A DNA stretch of 64,000 nucleotides from a virus (taxonomy: Duplodnaviria; Caudoviricetes), in the IMG/VR virus record IMGVR_UViG_3300002220_000288, positions 33,491 to 97,490 of that record, one strand, 5' to 3'. The notes under the pieces were generated by a model. The model was not told the origin of the DNA and did no database searches. It saw only the letters and a list, made by a program, of their open reading frames with translations. Shown here piece by piece: positions 27,265-55,744 of this stretch. Position 1 is the stretch's first letter; every line of letters begins with the position of its first letter. Position numbers and translations under genes: made by a program.

Positions 27265-27810
27265 TTAGGCGGCAACTCCCGAATGTGCAGTAACTGCGGT
27301 CGTGATATCAGAAGAACTCTCAAGCTTCTTCCCAGCAGCCTCACTCATCTGTTTTAGCTGTTCGTTCGTGAACGGAACCCATCGAACATCACCGGAGACG
27401 CCGTACAGCCATCCGTTCGTGATGATGTGGCTCCAGCAGTTAGTAAGCCAGTGGTCGACTGTTACGCCTTGAACCCGCGCCGAGTCCTCGATATTCGGCT
27501 TCAGTGATGGGTCAACCACAACCTTGAACACCGAATCGCCGTCCTCTTCAGGTACGGAATTGATTACTGCGTTCACGATATCAGAAGAAGAGGTAACGTC
27601 CTCTCCCAGTGCCTCACTCATAGCTTGAATATCGTCACCTGATAGCATCAAGCCGCCATCGGCGTATGCTGACAAATAATTGGCAACACAAGTATTTAGG
27701 TAAGCCTGGACATTCTCGGGATCAACAGCCTCAAATACTTCATAGTCCTTAATCGGGATAGACAACTCAAGATTCACTTGAACATTCGTTGGTTTTGTGC
27801 TCTTTGCCAT
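27265..27810 (-). CDS. Hypothetical protein, probably leaderless
   Basis: Internal duplication (MSEALG..SSSDI / MSEAAG..SSSDI); TAAGAT 6 nt before ATG. Confidence 0.6.
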   Translation of the reverse strand: MAKSTKPTNVQVNLELSIPIKDYEVFEAVDPENVQAYLNTCVANYLSAYADGGLMLSGDDIQAMSEALGEDVTSSSDIVNAVINSVPEEDGDSVFKVVVDPSLKPNIEDSARVQGVTVDHWLTNCWSHIITNGWLYGVSGDVRWVPFTNEQLKQMSEAAGKKLESSSDITTAVTAHSGVAA

Positions 27811-27851
27811 GACTATATCTTACCGTTTCTGAAAGTCCAATAGATAACAAT

Positions 27852-42696: not shown

Positions 42697-43069
42697 TTTC
42701 AACCTCGCATGAAACCGGCACGACAGAATAAAACCACGGATGATCTTCTCTCCAAGCGCCAGCCATATGAACTTGCCCAGACTCAGTAACGTAGGCGATA
42801 GACTGAACGTTTACCCCGTTTACGGTCTTTTGCCAGCCTACCATGTACACAGCAAATGGGCTTTCGCCAGTTCGTTGCTCTACTCTCTTTCGGTAGATAA
42901 ACCTTTGGCCTTGATCCAGGTGAAGCTCGAACAAATGCCTGCCCTCATCTGAGTAAAGAGCAAATGATTCAAGCTTCGCCCTGTTGATATCTACGTACCT
43001 ATTCTCACTGCCGTCATCGTTGACCTGATGCAGTTCGGTTTTGTCGTTGTATCGAGCTAACCACTTCAT
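42686..43069 (-). CDS. Hypothetical protein
   Basis: MKWLARYND.., RFIYRKR, YMVGWQ. Confidence 0.6.
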   Translation of the reverse strand: MKWLARYNDKTELHQVNDDGSENRYVDINRAKLESFALYSDEGRHLFELHLDQGQRFIYRKRVEQRTGESPFAVYMVGWQKTVNGVNVQSIAYVTESGQVHMAGAWREDHPWFYSVVPVSCEVENDV

Positions 43070-43098
43070 GATAGATTCCTTTTGCTTTCTACTAATTC

Positions 43099-43641
43099 TC
43101 AAGTTTCGTCGTAGCGATAGCTGAATGTTTCCTGCCCGGTAGCGCCAGGGGAGGCCGTGGTGCCGATTTCAGTCTGATATACTACAAAGTTACCCAAGTC
43201 TCCGGTCGTGCTGGTAATGGTACCAGTCACAGAGAGCGGAGACGCACTTGTGTATGTAAAAGCGTCAACCGGAGTTCCAACGCCAGAGTAGTTTGCGTTG
43301 GTTAGCTGATTACCTGTAGTTCCAGCCGTTCCAGTTGCCTGAACGTAAGTGGAAGCACCAGCGCTTACTTTGCAAGTAACACCAGTCCCAAACGTATTGG
43401 ACCCATCAGTGAACCACTTGATATTGTTGATAGTTCCGCTTGGGGCAACATCCACACTCAGGCGAGTTGACACCCAGTACGAGTAGTTTGTTCCTGATGT
43501 AGGGATCTGAATCGGGTTGGTTGTACCTGCGGTAGAGTGAGCGTCTTCCGCGTTTGCGCGAGTGTTAATGCTGGTAATATCGGTTTTAGTAGGTGATCCA
43601 GAAGACCCCGTCCACCTCCGAATTGTTACTGTAGCTGGCAT
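43099..43641 (-). CDS. Virion structural protein (Thr/Gly-rich)
   Basis: NYSYWV..., ends FSYRYDET; GAGGA RBS. Confidence 0.65.
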   Translation of the reverse strand: MPATVTIRRWTGSSGSPTKTDITSINTRANAEDAHSTAGTTNPIQIPTSGTNYSYWVSTRLSVDVAPSGTINNIKWFTDGSNTFGTGVTCKVSAGASTYVQATGTAGTTGNQLTNANYSGVGTPVDAFTYTSASPLSVTGTITSTTGDLGNFVVYQTEIGTTASPGATGQETFSYRYDET

Positions 43642-43668
43642 GACTTGAAATCCTCTTTGTGTTTATTG

Positions 43669-43947
43669 TTACCTGTTCTGCACCGTCAACTGCAAACTTC
43701 GCCTGTCGATCTCTCCTAAGTTTGTCGTAATCTGGCAGGTGACAGTATAACTCGTCCCATCCACCCCGCCCGAGATGCGGCAAGTGGAAGTGTAACTAGT
43801 GTTAGACTCAGAAACTTTAGTAAGACCAGCCGGGACGGTCCAAGAAGTACTAGAGACTGTCTCATTCGCGCCGAGCCAATCCGTCCAATCAAACGAATAG
43901 TCTAGCGTAGCGCCTGGATCTTTAATGTAGACAAACTCTACCGGCAT
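43669..43947 (-). CDS. Fibre-attachment adaptor protein, probably leaderless
   Basis: KDP...DYSFDW..WL...ETV..S.W, SGG..G..Y.V...ITT..G...R pattern. Confidence 0.7.
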   Translation of the reverse strand: MPVEFVYIKDPGATLDYSFDWTDWLGANETVSSTSWTVPAGLTKVSESNTSYTSTCRISGGVDGTSYTVTCQITTNLGEIDRRSLQLTVQNR

Positions 43948-43954
43948 CAACTAA

Positions 43955-43984
43955 AGGTTATCAATACACTATAGGTAATATCAA
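43955..43984 (-). promoter_or_regulatory. Promoter TTGATA-N18-TAACCT (TGn-extended), 7 nt before ATG
   Basis: tatcaa 43979-43984, aggtta 43955-43960, ATG at 43947. Confidence 0.6.
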
Positions 43985-43987
43985 CAT

Positions 43988-44032
43988 AAATAAAAACGGG
44001 ACCGGCTAAAGGAGAAAAAGCCAGTCCCGTTT
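43988..44032 (-). terminator. Intrinsic terminator with anti-SD loop
   Basis: AAACGGGACTGGCT-N11-AGCCGGTCCCGTTT-TTATTT. Confidence 0.8.
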
Positions 44033-44055
44033 CGGCGCGTCGGCGACCTGTCTAT
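43988..44055 (-). ncRNA. Candidate anti-Shine-Dalgarno sRNA A
   Basis: TGCTATAAT promoter; 14-bp stem (one G-U pair on this strand) with an 11-nt loop UUUUCUCCUUU, then a U-tract; no ORF. Confidence 0.65.
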
Positions 44056-44061
44056 ACGTAC

Positions 44062-44070
44062 ATTATAGCA
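44062..44070 (-). promoter_or_regulatory. Extended -10 promoter TGCTATAAT
   Basis: Perfect TGnTATAAT in an intergenic region. Confidence 0.75.
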
Positions 44071-44075
44071 TCGGC

Positions 44076-44279
44076 TTACATCATGGTCAGTTTTTTCGAG
44101 GAAGGCTTGATAATTTTCCCCGGAAACTCCTCAAGGGCATTGATTTTAAGCAACTCTCCGACCTCAAGCGACAGCGAAAAGGGAGAAATCTTCAACTTCT
44201 TGGCGATTTCGTCGATTGAAATGCCATTTTCCGCGTTCTTATAGACCAGAGCTACTATTTTCTTCTGATGTTTATTCAT
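44076..44279 (-). CDS. Small winged-helix/HTH DNA-binding protein
   Basis: GISIDEIAKKLKISP..L...V..L. Confidence 0.6.
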   Translation of the reverse strand: MNKHQKKIVALVYKNAENGISIDEIAKKLKISPFSLSLEVGELLKINALEEFPGKIIKPSSKKLTMM

Positions 44280-44290
44280 TTGAACCTATT

Positions 44291-44512
44291 TTAGTCGGTT
44301 TTTGACGACTCCCAAGGGCGCTTTTCAGTCCCAAGAGTGAAATTTGCGTCTAGCCGGATGTCTTTATTCGATAAAGACCAACATTCTCCGCTTTCTTTCA
44401 TGAAAACAACCCAGATCAGGTCATGTTCTTGGCTGTAGTCGATCAAAAAATGAGCAAAACCACGTCCTTTTACGGTCGTGACTGGCAGCGGAGGGTTGAT
44501 CTGGATAATCAC
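44291..44512 (-). CDS. Conserved phage hypothetical protein
   Basis: QINPPLPV.T.KG.G.A..LIDY..EHDL.WV motif. Confidence 0.65.
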   Translation of the reverse strand: MIIQINPPLPVTTVKGRGFAHFLIDYSQEHDLIWVVFMKESGECWSLSNKDIRLDANFTLGTEKRPWESSKTD

Positions 44513-44688
44513 TTAGCCATTTCCGCTGTGTTTCCATAATCCTTATCCCAAATAGGGCACCAATCAGGGCATCCTTTGTCCGCTACCTCGATTGACTTCT
44601 CGTTTTTCGGCATACACATGAAATATGCTTCTGTGGCCGAGACGACTTTAACTGCAAATCCGCATTCATGGCAAGTAGGTGTCTGCAT
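44509..44688 (-). CDS. 59-aa Cys-rich protein, probably leaderless (not in the ORF track)
   Basis: MQTPTCHEC...CPDWCP...; TGGTAAGAT 6 nt before ATG; GTGA overlap with the next gene. Confidence 0.6.
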   Translation of the reverse strand: MQTPTCHECGFAVKVVSATEAYFMCMPKNEKSIEVADKGCPDWCPIWDKDYGNTAEMAK

Positions 44689-44713
44689 GAGTATATCTTA
44701 CCATCTTGAGAGT

Positions 44714-44752
44714 AAAAAGCAAAACCCCCGGCAAAGGAGGAAAGCCGGGGGT
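44714..44752 (-). terminator. Intrinsic terminator with anti-SD loop
   Basis: ACCCCCGGC-N11-GCCGGGGGT-TTTGCTTTTT. Confidence 0.8.
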
Positions 44753-44784
44753 CAAGCCGAAAGGAGGTGATCGAAACAACCTAC
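44714..44784 (-). ncRNA. Candidate anti-Shine-Dalgarno sRNA B (16S 3'-end mimic)
   Basis: TGCTATATT promoter; contains GATCACCTCCTTTC and a terminator with loop UUUCCUCCUUU. Confidence 0.7.
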
Positions 44785-44790
44785 AACTCA

Positions 44791-44799
44791 AATATAGCA
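44791..44799 (-). promoter_or_regulatory. Extended -10 promoter TGCTATATT
   Basis: TGn + TATATT, 11 nt downstream of the upstream gene's stop. Confidence 0.6.
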
Positions 44800-44810
44800 C
44801 AAAGAACTGG

Positions 44811-45416
44811 CTATTGGAGTAGGAACCAGAAATAAGTGTCGGGTCCGATTTCAAGCTCGATCTTCAACTCTCCATGATCTTCAATCTTGAATCCTGCTTT
44901 ATCGAACAGCGAAGCCCACATTCGTTTACCCATTACGCTGTAGTGATTGGGGTTAGATTCGTGATGGCACACTGTGTCGGGAGCCGGAACCTCGACATAC
45001 ATTCTTCCGCCGTTGACAAGCCGCTCTTTAAGGAGACAGAGATCAAGGAAGGGAGAGGTGAAATGCTCAAGAGAGTGCCGCGCCCAGATAAGGTCGTAGT
45101 GGTATCGGCCCTCGTACAACGAAGAGTCGTCCACCGTTAGCCCGATCCACGTCACGTCGCTATTAGCTTCTGCGTTATCTTGCTCGGTAGTATCTGGCGT
45201 GATAACGTGCAAGTGTTTTATATTGGGGAACGACTTGCGGAAAGAAGGCCAAGCCACGCCCATGCCGCAACCTACGTCTAAGACACTCACTACACTAGAG
45301 GCGTCAATACGCTCCGTAAGGCCAACTACCATTCCTTCAGTAATTGCCGTGTGCATCGGAGTGAGATGCTCGGTGTAGACAGTAGAGAGAGGTTTTTTCA
45401 TTGAGTCGATTTCCAT
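44811..45416 (-). CDS. Class I SAM-dependent methyltransferase
   Basis: VLDVGCGMG, YDLIWARHSLEH, GG.MYVEVP. Confidence 0.85.
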   Translation of the reverse strand: MEIDSMKKPLSTVYTEHLTPMHTAITEGMVVGLTERIDASSVVSVLDVGCGMGVAWPSFRKSFPNIKHLHVITPDTTEQDNAEANSDVTWIGLTVDDSSLYEGRYHYDLIWARHSLEHFTSPFLDLCLLKERLVNGGRMYVEVPAPDTVCHHESNPNHYSVMGKRMWASLFDKAGFKIEDHGELKIELEIGPDTYFWFLLQ

Positions 45417-46085
45417 TTAGAATCCTAAAACCTGTTGCTGTAGTCTTTTAGCTGCAATTTCACAGTATCGTTCGTCGATCTCTATTCCGATTGCGTTTCG
45501 CCCGAGAGATCGAGCAGCAGCCAGGGTCGTGCCGCTACCCATGTACGGATCCAATATACATTCACTTTCTTCCGAGAAGTCCTGCACCCACTTCTGAATC
45601 AGCTTGATTGGCTTCTCGGTGGGATGTTGGCCTCGGACAGTAGGAAAATTCCATACGGCGTGATGGCCTCCGCCATTCCAACGCTTCTTCCCAGGGCGAT
45701 GCATCACAGCAACATCCTCCCATCCTGTTCCCGGCCTGTCGCCTGTGAATTGAGGCGCACCGTTCGGCTTAATCCAAACGCCAAGACGGACAAGTAGACC
45801 CATGTCTTCGAGCCTTACAGCGTGACGCCATTCGCACGTCATAACTACCCACCTTTGGGCAAGTCCGACAAGAGCCCCGCACACATCAACGAACTCATCA
45901 TCGGTAATAGGCGCGAAGTCAATCTGAGACTTCGCTAGGTCTTTCATGCTTCTAGCGCCATTATGGGCTTTAGCTCCGTAAGGCGGATCGGTGATAACTA
46001 CATCTACGCCAGTAAGCGATGAGATAATCTCACGATTATCGCCGTGGTAGATCGTAATTCCCTTTTCTTCGTAATATGCTTTCAT
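45417..46085 (-). CDS. N6-adenine/N4-cytosine DNA methyltransferase (beta class)
   Basis: TDPPY motif IV, HPTEKP, LDPYMGSGTT, GIEI. Confidence 0.92.
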   Translation of the reverse strand: MKAYYEEKGITIYHGDNREIISSLTGVDVVITDPPYGAKAHNGARSMKDLAKSQIDFAPITDDEFVDVCGALVGLAQRWVVMTCEWRHAVRLEDMGLLVRLGVWIKPNGAPQFTGDRPGTGWEDVAVMHRPGKKRWNGGGHHAVWNFPTVRGQHPTEKPIKLIQKWVQDFSEESECILDPYMGSGTTLAAARSLGRNAIGIEIDERYCEIAAKRLQQQVLGF

Positions 46086-49587: not shown

Positions 49588-49836
49588 TTATTTACGGATA
49601 AGCTTCGGATGCCGACCAACCTCATCTTTATCGTAATACCGCTTACCGTCCTTAGGTCCGTCCCACTTGTTCACTACCTCATCCACTACCGGCAGAACCG
49701 TACACTCATCATCAAATCGCAGCATCGCCTCGCTGATCGCCATCCGCAACTTCCGGTTACACATCCGCTTCCACAACTTCTCAGATCGAGAGGTAGTATT
49801 GCCGCCAATGGGATGCTTCTTAAATGATCCACTCAT
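49588..49836 (-). CDS. Small basic protein, probably leaderless
   Basis: MS.S.KKHP....S.K.WKR..NRK.R..W..PKDGK motif; TGATACCAT-N6-ATG. Confidence 0.7.
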   Translation of the reverse strand: MSGSFKKHPIGGNTTSRSEKLWKRMCNRKLRMAISEAMLRFDDECTVLPVVDEVVNKWDGPKDGKRYYDKDEVGRHPKLIRK

Positions 49837-49849
49837 ATACGGATGGTAT

Positions 49850-50548
49850 CACCGAACCGAATATTGACAGATAAGGTTGATAATTAAGCCCGATGATTGA
49901 CAATCTTCTTAGGCAAGGTTGACAAGTGCGGTTTTGACCCCCGGCAGGCAATGGTACTAAGGAGAGGGAAGTACTATGGATACAGCTCGAAAATCTGAGT
50001 CAGTTACTGTCAGATTTTTGGCAATATATAGTACCGGGAAGGTCAAAGTACTACGAAATGGCCGGTTCTTTGGCCTAAAACATCCGCTACTCCATAAGCA
50101 GGGTTTATACAACAGCACATAACATATTCTATGCCCATGCCACATAAGTATCGTTTTGCTAGCTAGGGGGGATAGGGTTTGTATAAGTTTGGTTTATGTT
50201 GGGGGATTTTTTCTATAAAAAATTGAAAATATGGTTGTGGAGGCTGCCACCCCCATGCCCGTCCGTCCCTGGCTCACCCCCACCCGCTGCGCCTAAGCCG
50301 CTCGTTTATCGCTGCGCCGGTGTCAACTTCCGTTGTCTTGAGTCTCAGTCTGCGCCGGTTGTCGCTGCTGTCAACTTCCGTTGCCTGGCTTCCCCTGGAG
50401 TGCTGCCGTTTCCCTGGAAGGGCGGCTTCCCCGGCTTCCCCGGCTTCCCATGACGGGCTAATCTTCCCTTCCCCATACGTCGCGCATATACAAGAGATAG
50501 GCTAGGGGGGCATGAAGGATGTTTAATTGTTCTATGCCTAATTAGCTA
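49850..50548. other. Non-coding strand-switch region (candidate terminus, packaging site or origin)
   Basis: Genes diverge here; no credible ORF; short direct repeats and G/C runs. Confidence 0.55.
50287..50449 (+). repeat. Short direct repeats
   Basis: TGTCAACTTCCGTTG at 50321 and 50369; CTGCGCC x3; GGCTTCCC(C) in tandem x3 at 50424-50449, plus one at 50387. Confidence 0.7.
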
Positions 50549-55486: not shown

Positions 55487-55744
55487 ATGAATAACGAAGA
55501 ACGCGGCAGAGGTAGCGGGTATAGCGACGGCGACGGCTGCGGCTGGGGATACGGCGACGATATCACCGCTGGCGACGGCTACAGATCCGGCGACGGCTCC
55601 GGCAAAGGCTACGGCACGGCCTACGGCGACGGCGGAGGATGCGACAGCGGCACAGGACACGGCAGCGGCTGGAGCGACGGCTACGGCAAAAACAGAGGAT
55701 ACGGCAACGGCTGGGGCTTCAGCGATGGCGACGGGAAAAGCTAA
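55487..55744 (+). CDS. Gly-rich (GxG) microprotein 3, 85 aa
   Basis: TAAAGGAGAAAAG RBS; MNNEERGRGSGY... Confidence 0.7.
   Translation: MNNEERGRGSGYSDGDGCGWGYGDDITAGDGYRSGDGSGKGYGTAYGDGGGCDSGTGHGSGWSDGYGKNRGYGNGWGFSDGDGKS

Follow-up and report, generated by a model that had tools for sequence, protein, structure and literature searches.

Two candidate phage small RNA genes with an anti-Shine-Dalgarno motif upstream of the structural genes of a freshwater-type podophage

The virus record IMGVR_UViG_3300002220_000288 (97,490 bp) is the genome of a freshwater-type podophage of 97 kb, and its bases 33491-97490 form the 64,000-nt window analysed here. Two short units on the minus strand, unit 1 at 44714-44799 and unit 2 at 43988-44090, are best explained as two conserved phage small RNA (sRNA) genes with a seed complementary to the Shine-Dalgarno (SD) sequence, a reading to which we give a probability of about one half. 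The predicted RNA of unit 1 is called sRNA B and that of unit 2 sRNA A. The units are likely to be transcribed independently; whether their shared motif acts by pairing with SD-type sites is close to an even call. Positions refer to the window unless they are marked as genome positions.

Architecture of the two units

Both units lie on the arm of the genome that is coded on the minus strand, between a methyltransferase gene (44811-45416) and the first structural gene, which encodes a Gp77-like adaptor. An original prediction, made from the letters of this DNA, had proposed two minus-strand units, each with an extended -10 promoter, a body of about 70 nt and a terminator with the loop UUUYCUCCUUU, and all of these elements are present at their coordinates. 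It had also described loops that differ by one nucleotide on unrelated stems, and both are seen on reading the sequence. The features of the units are:

44791-44799, minus strand: unit 1 extended -10 TGCTATATT, read directly, identical in the close relative L045
44759-44772, minus strand: unit 1 anti-SD motif GAUCACCUCCUUUC (DNA letters GATCACCTCCTTTC), 14 nt, predicted to be single-stranded
44723-44753, minus strand: unit 1 terminator hairpin with a 10-bp GC-rich stem, from the fold and a hairpin scan
44733-44743, minus strand: unit 1 loop UUUCCUCCUUU (DNA letters TTTCCTCCTTT), 11 nt, from the hairpin scan
44714-44724, minus strand: unit 1 U-run UUUUGCUUUUU, predicted 3' end inside
44062-44090, minus strand: unit 2 promoter CTGACC, 17 nt, TGCTATAAT, from a promoter scan (10/12 matches plus TG)
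43993-44033, minus strand: unit 2 terminator hairpin, 15-bp stem with one G.U pair, from the fold
44008-44018, minus strand: unit 2 loop UUUUCUCCUUU (DNA letters TTTTCTCCTTT), 11 nt, from the fold
43988-43996, minus strand: unit 2 U-run UUUUUAUUU, predicted 3' end inside

The order in unit 1 is TGCTATATT, about 25 nt, GAUCACCUCCUUUC, the hairpin with loop UUUCCUCCUUU and the U-run UUUUGCUUUUU, with transcription predicted to start at ~44784 and to end at ~44714. Unit 2 consists of its promoter, about 28 nt, the hairpin with loop UUUUCUCCUUU and the U-run UUUUUAUUU, and its predicted transcript runs from ~44055 to ~43988. The centroid fold leaves the 14-mer of unit 1 unpaired, as does the minimum-energy fold for most of its length. 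The 14-mer equals what we take to be the common bacterial 16S 3' tail; the record holds no ribosomal RNA, and the tail of the host may differ. A freshwater proteobacterium is suggested as host by the Gp77-type podophage character and the freshwater origin of the relatives.

The folding energy is -25.7 kcal/mol for the hairpin of unit 1 (z = -5.1 against shuffles) and -25.6 kcal/mol for that of unit 2 (z = -8.3). On the transcribed strand each GC-rich stem is followed by a U-run, as in intrinsic terminators. Both loops, with 11 nt, are beyond the usual 3-8 nt of such terminators, and a consensus terminator scan with loops of 3-8 nt misses unit 2 and draws unit 1 wrongly.

The sequence TGnTATAWT is found only twice on the two strands of the 97,490-bp genome, against about six copies expected from uniform base frequencies, and both copies belong to the units. 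This placement cannot be due to chance, because both copies sit 29-38 nt 5' of the unit hairpins, which are two of the few convincing terminators of the genome. On the minus strand of the ~50-kb region of minus-strand genes, exact copies of the 11-mer are confined to the two unit loops; the remaining exact copies in the window are complements of plus-strand SDs.

Neither unit contains a conserved open reading frame (ORF) on either strand. According to Rfam, the region 43000-46000 has nothing meaningful at E<=10, the best match being the COG2827 RNA with 24 bits against a gathering score of 49, and nine related loci gave no matches at E<=0.1. With their own promoter, their own terminator, no conserved ORF and retention in relatives, the units have the features of stand-alone sRNA genes.

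Read on the plus strand, the motifs look like ideal SDs, and the loops and the 14-mer could then be real SDs (AAAGGAGGAAA, AAAGGAGGTGATC) of small plus-strand genes; in L045 an ATG after the second motif even opens a 10-codon ORF. However, no start codon follows either loop at a usable spacing, and the window has TGA and TCG where the L045 micro-ORF starts, which is not conserved. Only transcription of the minus strand would account for the U-runs and the G.U pair, and all neighbours of the units over ~50 kb are minus-strand genes. Plus-strand coding was rejected for want of a usable start codon, the 10-codon ORF of L045 having no start in the window, and a functional plus strand is extremely improbable.

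Relatives and other viral contigs

Compared with the phage GenBank collection, the locus has no DNA match. Closer relatives were fetched without reference to the RNA, by the methyltransferase and by the Gp77-like protein. Unit 2 has a family made up of the window, L045, L185/186 and L189-195 (alignment A3, ten sequences). This alignment shows no variation in the motif (U)CUCCUUU, nor in the T, G, T, A and last T of TGnTAnnnT. The terminator stems vary with compensation, 6/10 pairs being changed on both sides; in L045 a G-C pair becomes A-T, a U.G pair becomes U-A and the loop becomes UUUCCUCCUUU.

The position of the motif is less constant. Within the family, the window and its close relative L045 alone have it in the terminator loop. 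In eight relatives it precedes the terminator, as part of the stretch GUUCUCCUUUyGUUUGGU, which is predicted to be single-stranded, and their terminator loop has an unrelated sequence. In all of them it falls in a region predicted to be unpaired. What is conserved in unit 2 is the promoter, a CUCCUUU predicted to be accessible and the terminator, and neither the loop as such nor the position in the DNA. This pattern fits an RNA seed, whereas a DNA operator or a terminator loop that arose by chance would explain it poorly.

These alignments sharpen the original prediction, which had placed selection on the exposed loop and had suggested a covariance search for conserved loops with covarying stems. 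The stems do covary and the motif is kept, but the loop position is not, the motif being 5' and single-stranded in the eight relatives just mentioned. The comparison supports the view that the C/U-rich anti-SD motif, together with its predicted accessibility, is the element under selection. A covariance model (R1) of the form of sRNA A with the seed on the 5' side finds the known members and L184 only, and misses the rearranged form of the window. A weak R1 match at genome 6192-6291 overlaps an SD complement and was set aside, as it looks like a false positive.

The layout of unit 1 is also present in L189, L191 and L190, at the same place before a zinc-ribbon gene. Here the -10 equivalents are TGaTAGATT (L189, L191) and TGcTATCTT (L190), and the stems, AGCCCUCGAC and AGCCCCGGA, are unrelated to those of the window. 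The loops of L189, L191 and L190 (UCCCCACCUCCG, UCCCCUCCCUCCG, CCUCUCCCA) are C/U-rich with CCUCC or CUCCC. From the single-stranded motif, the core CACCUCCUUUCGG is kept in L045 and CCCUCCUUUCGG is single-stranded in L190. The seed variants of the sRNAs include UCUCCUUU, CCUCC and CUCCCCUCCC. Among 44 loci obtained with a 180-aa structural protein and four large related records, no hairpin with an anti-SD loop was found, the motif matches being SD complements or coding sequence.

The same loop recurs in unrelated viruses. When IMG/VR was scanned for CCCC-N0-9-TTTYCTCCTTT-N0-9-GGGG, 82 stretches matched, from which we kept those with a perfect stem of 6-16 bp and a loop of 11-17 nt. This left ~30 unique hairpins with the loop UUUYCUCCUUU in unrelated viral contigs (L075-L151) with a GC content from 35% to 65%; with a control loop of equal composition there were 29 stretches, of which 3 were hairpins. 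An extra CCUCC-type motif lies just upstream of 12 of the 30 hairpins (2.8 expected), and an extended -10 is found at four (0.6 expected). TGGTATAAT precedes several of them, which are placed between divergent genes (L087, L093) and look like separate small RNA genes. An unrelated 30.8-kb contig with no protein similarity (L066:9842-9965, plus strand) reproduces the layout of unit 1 nearly exactly, in an intergenic region on the sense strand: CAUCACCUCCUUU, 6 nt, a 13-bp stem, the loop UUUUCUCCUUU and a U-rich tail. Twelve of the unrelated loci had no Rfam matches at the gathering score.

Could the units be terminators or insulators at module boundaries and nothing else? They would then end upstream transcription and protect the leaderless promoters behind them, and the motif and the -10-like hexamers would be functionless. 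The units do belong to the very few convincing terminators of the genome, a comparable place in distant relatives is occupied by plain tetraloop terminators, and about 21 of the 30 unrelated hairpins have an upstream ORF on the same strand (in the pyrimidine orientation), as terminators predict. However, the motif is invariant in relatives even where it is outside the terminator, and the extended -10 keeps its place among the relatives and has no further copy in the genome. Loops of 11 nt are moreover disfavoured in terminators, yet this loop sequence is enriched about tenfold over the control of the same composition. We therefore find a role as terminators only improbable.

A motif that is short and pyrimidine-rich could also be a protein site, either for an RNA-binding factor (ribosomal protein S1, Hfq or a phage protein) or as a DNA operator of the adjacent helix-turn-helix (HTH) protein. 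A small HTH-like gene adjoins unit 2 in 5/8 relatives, and terminator loops of E. coli sRNAs can regulate without base pairing (PMC11979758). An operator should however have a fixed position relative to the promoters, whereas the motif shifts by ~26 nt and into the hairpin loop. In the relatives of unit 1 its sequence varies (CCUCC, CUCCC) and is still complementary to GGAGG-type sites, and the extra CCUCC motifs in unrelated phages occur without that HTH gene. A protein site is on balance unlikely.

Shine-Dalgarno strength and downstream genes

The minus-strand genes form a run of ~50 kb from ~50145 downwards, with small genes, a SLOG protein, an M15 peptidase and two methyltransferases followed by the structural genes. 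The plus arm starts at ~50196, wraps to genome 1-23917 and carries non-structural functions, including an AAA ATPase, GATase/amidoligase pairs, ParB-HTH and replication genes. Using one start-picking rule for all genes and a common bacterial 16S-type tail, which may not be that of the host, the mean SD duplex energy is -9.5 kcal/mol in the plus arm and -6.9 kcal/mol in the minus arm (p = 5.6e-5). For a relative of 102.7 kb (G006, the genome of L191) the means are -8.65 kcal/mol for non-structural and -6.68 kcal/mol for structural genes (p = 2.4e-5). The contrast between a strong-SD non-structural arm and a weak-SD structural arm is real here and in this second genome.

The predicted targets of the loops with an energy <= -10 kcal/mol follow the same division, with 16/62 in the plus arm against 4/71 in the minus arm. 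The exact 11-nt complement of the loop of sRNA A, AAAGGAGAAAA, is the SD of the plus-arm genes at 55487, 55763 and 63231.

As sRNA genes, the units would produce stand-alone non-coding RNAs, sRNA A of ~68 nt and sRNA B of ~73 nt. A sigma-70-type promoter with an extended -10 would drive each of them, and each would end at its own intrinsic terminator. The functional element would be the exposed anti-SD motif; sRNA A would have it in the loop, as UUUUCUCCUUU, and sRNA B twice, as UUUCCUCCUUU in the loop and as CACCUCCUUUC in the single-stranded body. Pairing with purine-rich ribosome-binding sites (AAAGGAG[A/G]AA) would lower the translation, and perhaps the stability, of messages with a strong SD, as bacterial sRNAs with C-rich seeds do. 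The sites that match best belong to the non-structural arm of the phage itself, and host messages may be targets as well. Each terminator would also shield the promoter of the next gene, and this apparently leaderless gene would escape occlusion by the anti-SD.

A more far-reaching version, put forward in the original prediction, is a global switch between SD-led and leaderless translation. Two abundant mimics of the 16S 3' tail would titrate the SDs of host messages and of the phage's own strong-SD messages, leaving ribosomes to the leaderless and weak-SD structural genes; this would be an early-to-late switch made of RNA only and a device used by many unrelated phages. We regard this version as unlikely. 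The ~30 unrelated contigs with the same loop suggest a device that extends beyond this lineage. The family is a clean test system: both RNAs are short and their seed is defined, nature offers variants in which the seed is looped out or single-stranded, and SD-led genes stand side by side with leaderless ones.

Several points count against anti-SD sRNAs, beginning with the assumed 16S-type tail, which may not be that of the host. The matches between loop and SD follow from SD strength, as an AAAGGAG-type SD with flanking A's is generic, and are no proof of targeting. An 11-nt loop permits a kissing contact of only ~7-9 bp, and the phage's own strong-SD genes would also be hit, without evident benefit. 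L184-186 have no unit 1, so the units are dispensable in the wider group, and in relatives further away, whose 180-aa protein is 50-71% identical, the corresponding place has either a terminator with an ordinary tetraloop or nothing. In G006, the start region of the amidoligase gene, ACAAACCAAAGGAGAACgagaAUG (L216:1495-1520, minus strand), is complementary to the extended sRNA A seed of that phage at 15/17 positions, which is not significant, as we estimate that ~0.2 such matches are expected by chance. No significant co-variation of seed and target was found, and the best target of loop B in G006 has no homologue in the genome of the window.

One plus-arm gene of 73 aa (genome 11195-11416; L047:11173-11197) has an unusually long SD, GAAAGGGGGCGGUC, which can pair with the 16S-type tail at 13/14 positions, and hence also with the single-stranded 14-mer of unit 1. 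In G006 the orthologue ranks in the top three of the targets predicted for that phage's unit 1 loop. This gene was considered as a specific target of sRNA B and rejected, as its high rank in both genomes simply reflects the very long SD.

The genes between and behind the units, with their promoters, are:

44686-44703, minus strand: leaderless-type promoter and start, TGgTAAGAT, 6 nt, ATG (44688-44686), no SD
44509-44688, minus strand: 59-aa zinc-ribbon gene, directly after unit 1
44291-44512, minus strand: 73-aa gene between the units, GTG start overlapping the upstream stop
44076-44279, minus strand: 67-aa gene between the units, weak HTH matches (below Pfam cut-offs)
43945-43984, minus strand: leaderless-type promoter and start, TTGATA, 18 nt, TGaTAACCT, 7 nt, ATG (43947-43945), no SD
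43669-43947, minus strand: Gp77-like GP4 fibre-tail adaptor gene, the first structural gene (PF23148, 3.4e-27)

The U-run of unit 1 overlaps the -35 (TTGCTT, 44722-44717) of the promoter that follows it. At the start of the zinc-ribbon gene, the TGn and the 6-nt spacing are kept in L045, L189, L190 and L191, and the relatives have TA(G/A)(A/G)AT-N6-ATG; the start is TAGAAT-N6-ATG in L189, L190 and L191, and TGGTAGAAT-N7-ATG in L184. For the Gp77-like gene, eight relatives have TTGAGA, a spacer of ~18 nt (counted in L190), TGnTAnTAT, N7 and ATG, with the 7-nt spacing invariant. Roughly 40 relatives are Gp77-positive, and homologues of this 92-aa protein cover 100% of it from residue 1. The invariant spacing between -10 and ATG in relatives and the lack of an SD suggest that both downstream genes are leaderless, which backs the original prediction of a promoter for an apparently leaderless gene behind each unit. 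An extended -10 at leaderless distance is found at only three ORF starts in the genome, two of which are these genes. Of 29 unrelated hairpins of this loop class, none precedes a leaderless-type start, so the link to leaderless genes is confined to this lineage.

A promoter, a short transcript and a terminator directly upstream of structural genes recall the PR'-tR' (6S RNA) leader of the lambda late operon. Unit 2 lies right before the Gp77-like adaptor, and small regulatory-looking genes (the zinc ribbon and the weak HTH) are just upstream. In such a leader the promoter would be constitutive, a phage antiterminator would override the terminator, and the motif would be its recognition site. 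The genes after the terminators are however without an SD and have their own conserved -35 and extended -10, 6-7 nt from the ATG. This speaks against the leader, because read-through would bury a start apparently built for leaderless initiation. Further, the family matches of the neighbours include no Q-like protein, and the motif shifts relative to promoter and terminator among the relatives. A PR'-tR'-like leader seems very unlikely, and anti-SD sRNAs remain our preferred reading.

Five of the eight relatives obtained with the Gp77-like protein (L189-L192, L194) have a 68-aa homologue of the HTH-like gene immediately before unit 2; the contigs of L193 and L196 stop short of this place, and gene calling gave no such gene there in L195.

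Some further observations concern starts and repeats elsewhere in the genome. The third start with an extended -10 at leaderless distance, TGATACCAT-N6-ATG, is at 49836-49851 on the minus strand and belongs to an 82-aa gene at 49588-49836. TAAGATATA-N3-ATG recurs at two further SD-less ORF starts, where the promoter-start motif of the zinc-ribbon gene, GGTAAGATATActcATG (44702-44686), is repeated on the minus strand as GGTAAGATATAgtcATG at 27810-27824 and as GGTAAACTATAtacATG at L048:9891-9905 (genome 29891-29905). The genes of 181 aa and 1778 aa that have these sequences at SD-less starts may be further leaderless genes. Where the two arms converge there is a bidirectional terminator, AAAGGGGGC-TTAG-GCCCCCTTT (L048:3947-3968, genome 23947-23968), with an ordinary tetraloop; apart from it and the units, the structural arm has no strong terminator. 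Outside the window, at L046:707-889 (genome 9506-9688), 4-5 copies of the iteron-like repeat AACCCTCCTCCGG(T/C)AAAGGAGGG lie within a 391-aa gene (genome 9392-10567), with spacings of 66, 33, 33 and 22 nt, all multiples of 11. As with lambda O, the repeats look like the iterons of a replication origin that lies within the gene of its initiator.

Comparison with known systems

RNAIII and RsaE/RoxS of S. aureus, LhrC of Listeria and the actinobacterial 6C RNA have exposed C-rich loops that pair with SDs and block initiation. In RNAIII the C-rich motif includes the loop of the terminator hairpin, as in the units of the window. The Gram-positive seeds are UCCC or CCCC, and the phage units show no similarity to these RNAs in sequence or structure; one of them has a 14-nt copy of the 16S tail. 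No member of the RsaE/RoxS, LhrC, 6C or c4 families was found over 43000-46000 at E<=10, in nine related loci at E<=0.1 or in 12 unrelated loci at the gathering score. sRNAs with C-rich seeds that pair with SD regions are discussed together with the cuckoo RNAs (PMC4615179).

The cuckoo RNAs (CcsR, RSs0680, alpha-r14; RF02344) of Alpha- and other Proteobacteria are RNAs that extend from promoter to terminator and have C/U-rich, anti-SD-like loops (PMC4615179). They resemble the phage units in that an anti-SD-like motif is the only sequence conserved and in their freely varying, compensated stems, and both raise the question whether ribosome-binding sites are occluded globally or specifically (PMC4615179). 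Cuckoo RNAs are however chromosomal and have 2-4 adjacent hairpins, each with CCUCCUCCC, whereas a phage unit has one hairpin and the motif (U)CUCCUUU or CACCUCCUUUC. Unlike them, the units are phage-borne, lie beside leaderless-type genes and have the motif outside the loop in most relatives. RF02344 has no match in the window at E<=10 or in the relatives at E<=0.1, and the single hairpin per unit also places the units outside this family.

Among phage regulatory RNAs (c4 of P1/P7, OOP and 6S of lambda, and the prophage RNAs DicF, IsrK and AsxR), some act at ribosome-binding sites; c4 on ant and DicF on ftsZ do so by loop sequences (PMC12197685). These are gene-specific antisense or trans regulators, whereas the phage units carry a generic anti-SD motif, and a class of generic anti-SD RNAs or 16S mimics is not mentioned in this review of phage RNAs, in which the words 16S and leaderless do not occur (PMC12197685). 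In the E. coli sRNAs SdsR, RseX and ArrS the terminator loop is the regulatory element, apparently without base pairing, acting on the structure of one 5' untranslated region (PMC11979758). The units are alike in that the loop of their own terminator would be regulatory, and differ in that the loop of the window is a perfect SD complement.

In the literature searched, we found no phage-encoded anti-SD RNAs, no association of such RNAs with leaderless genes and no phage gene classes that differ systematically in SD strength. A phage that turns off a class of its own early messages by way of the SD is known in T4, where the endoribonuclease RegB recognises GGAG. RegB is a protein nuclease that cleaves the message, while the proposed RNAs would pair with it, to a similar outcome. 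No RegB-like gene was seen in the present phage, although no search aimed at one was made. If the reading is right, the phage would time or bias translation by competing with the recognition sequence of the ribosome, and the units would be an RNA counterpart of RegB. Bacterial sRNAs with anti-SD seeds and phage sRNAs are both known already, and the best-supported comparison is that the two units would work in the manner of the cuckoo/CcsR, RsaE/RoxS and LhrC kinds while standing outside those families.

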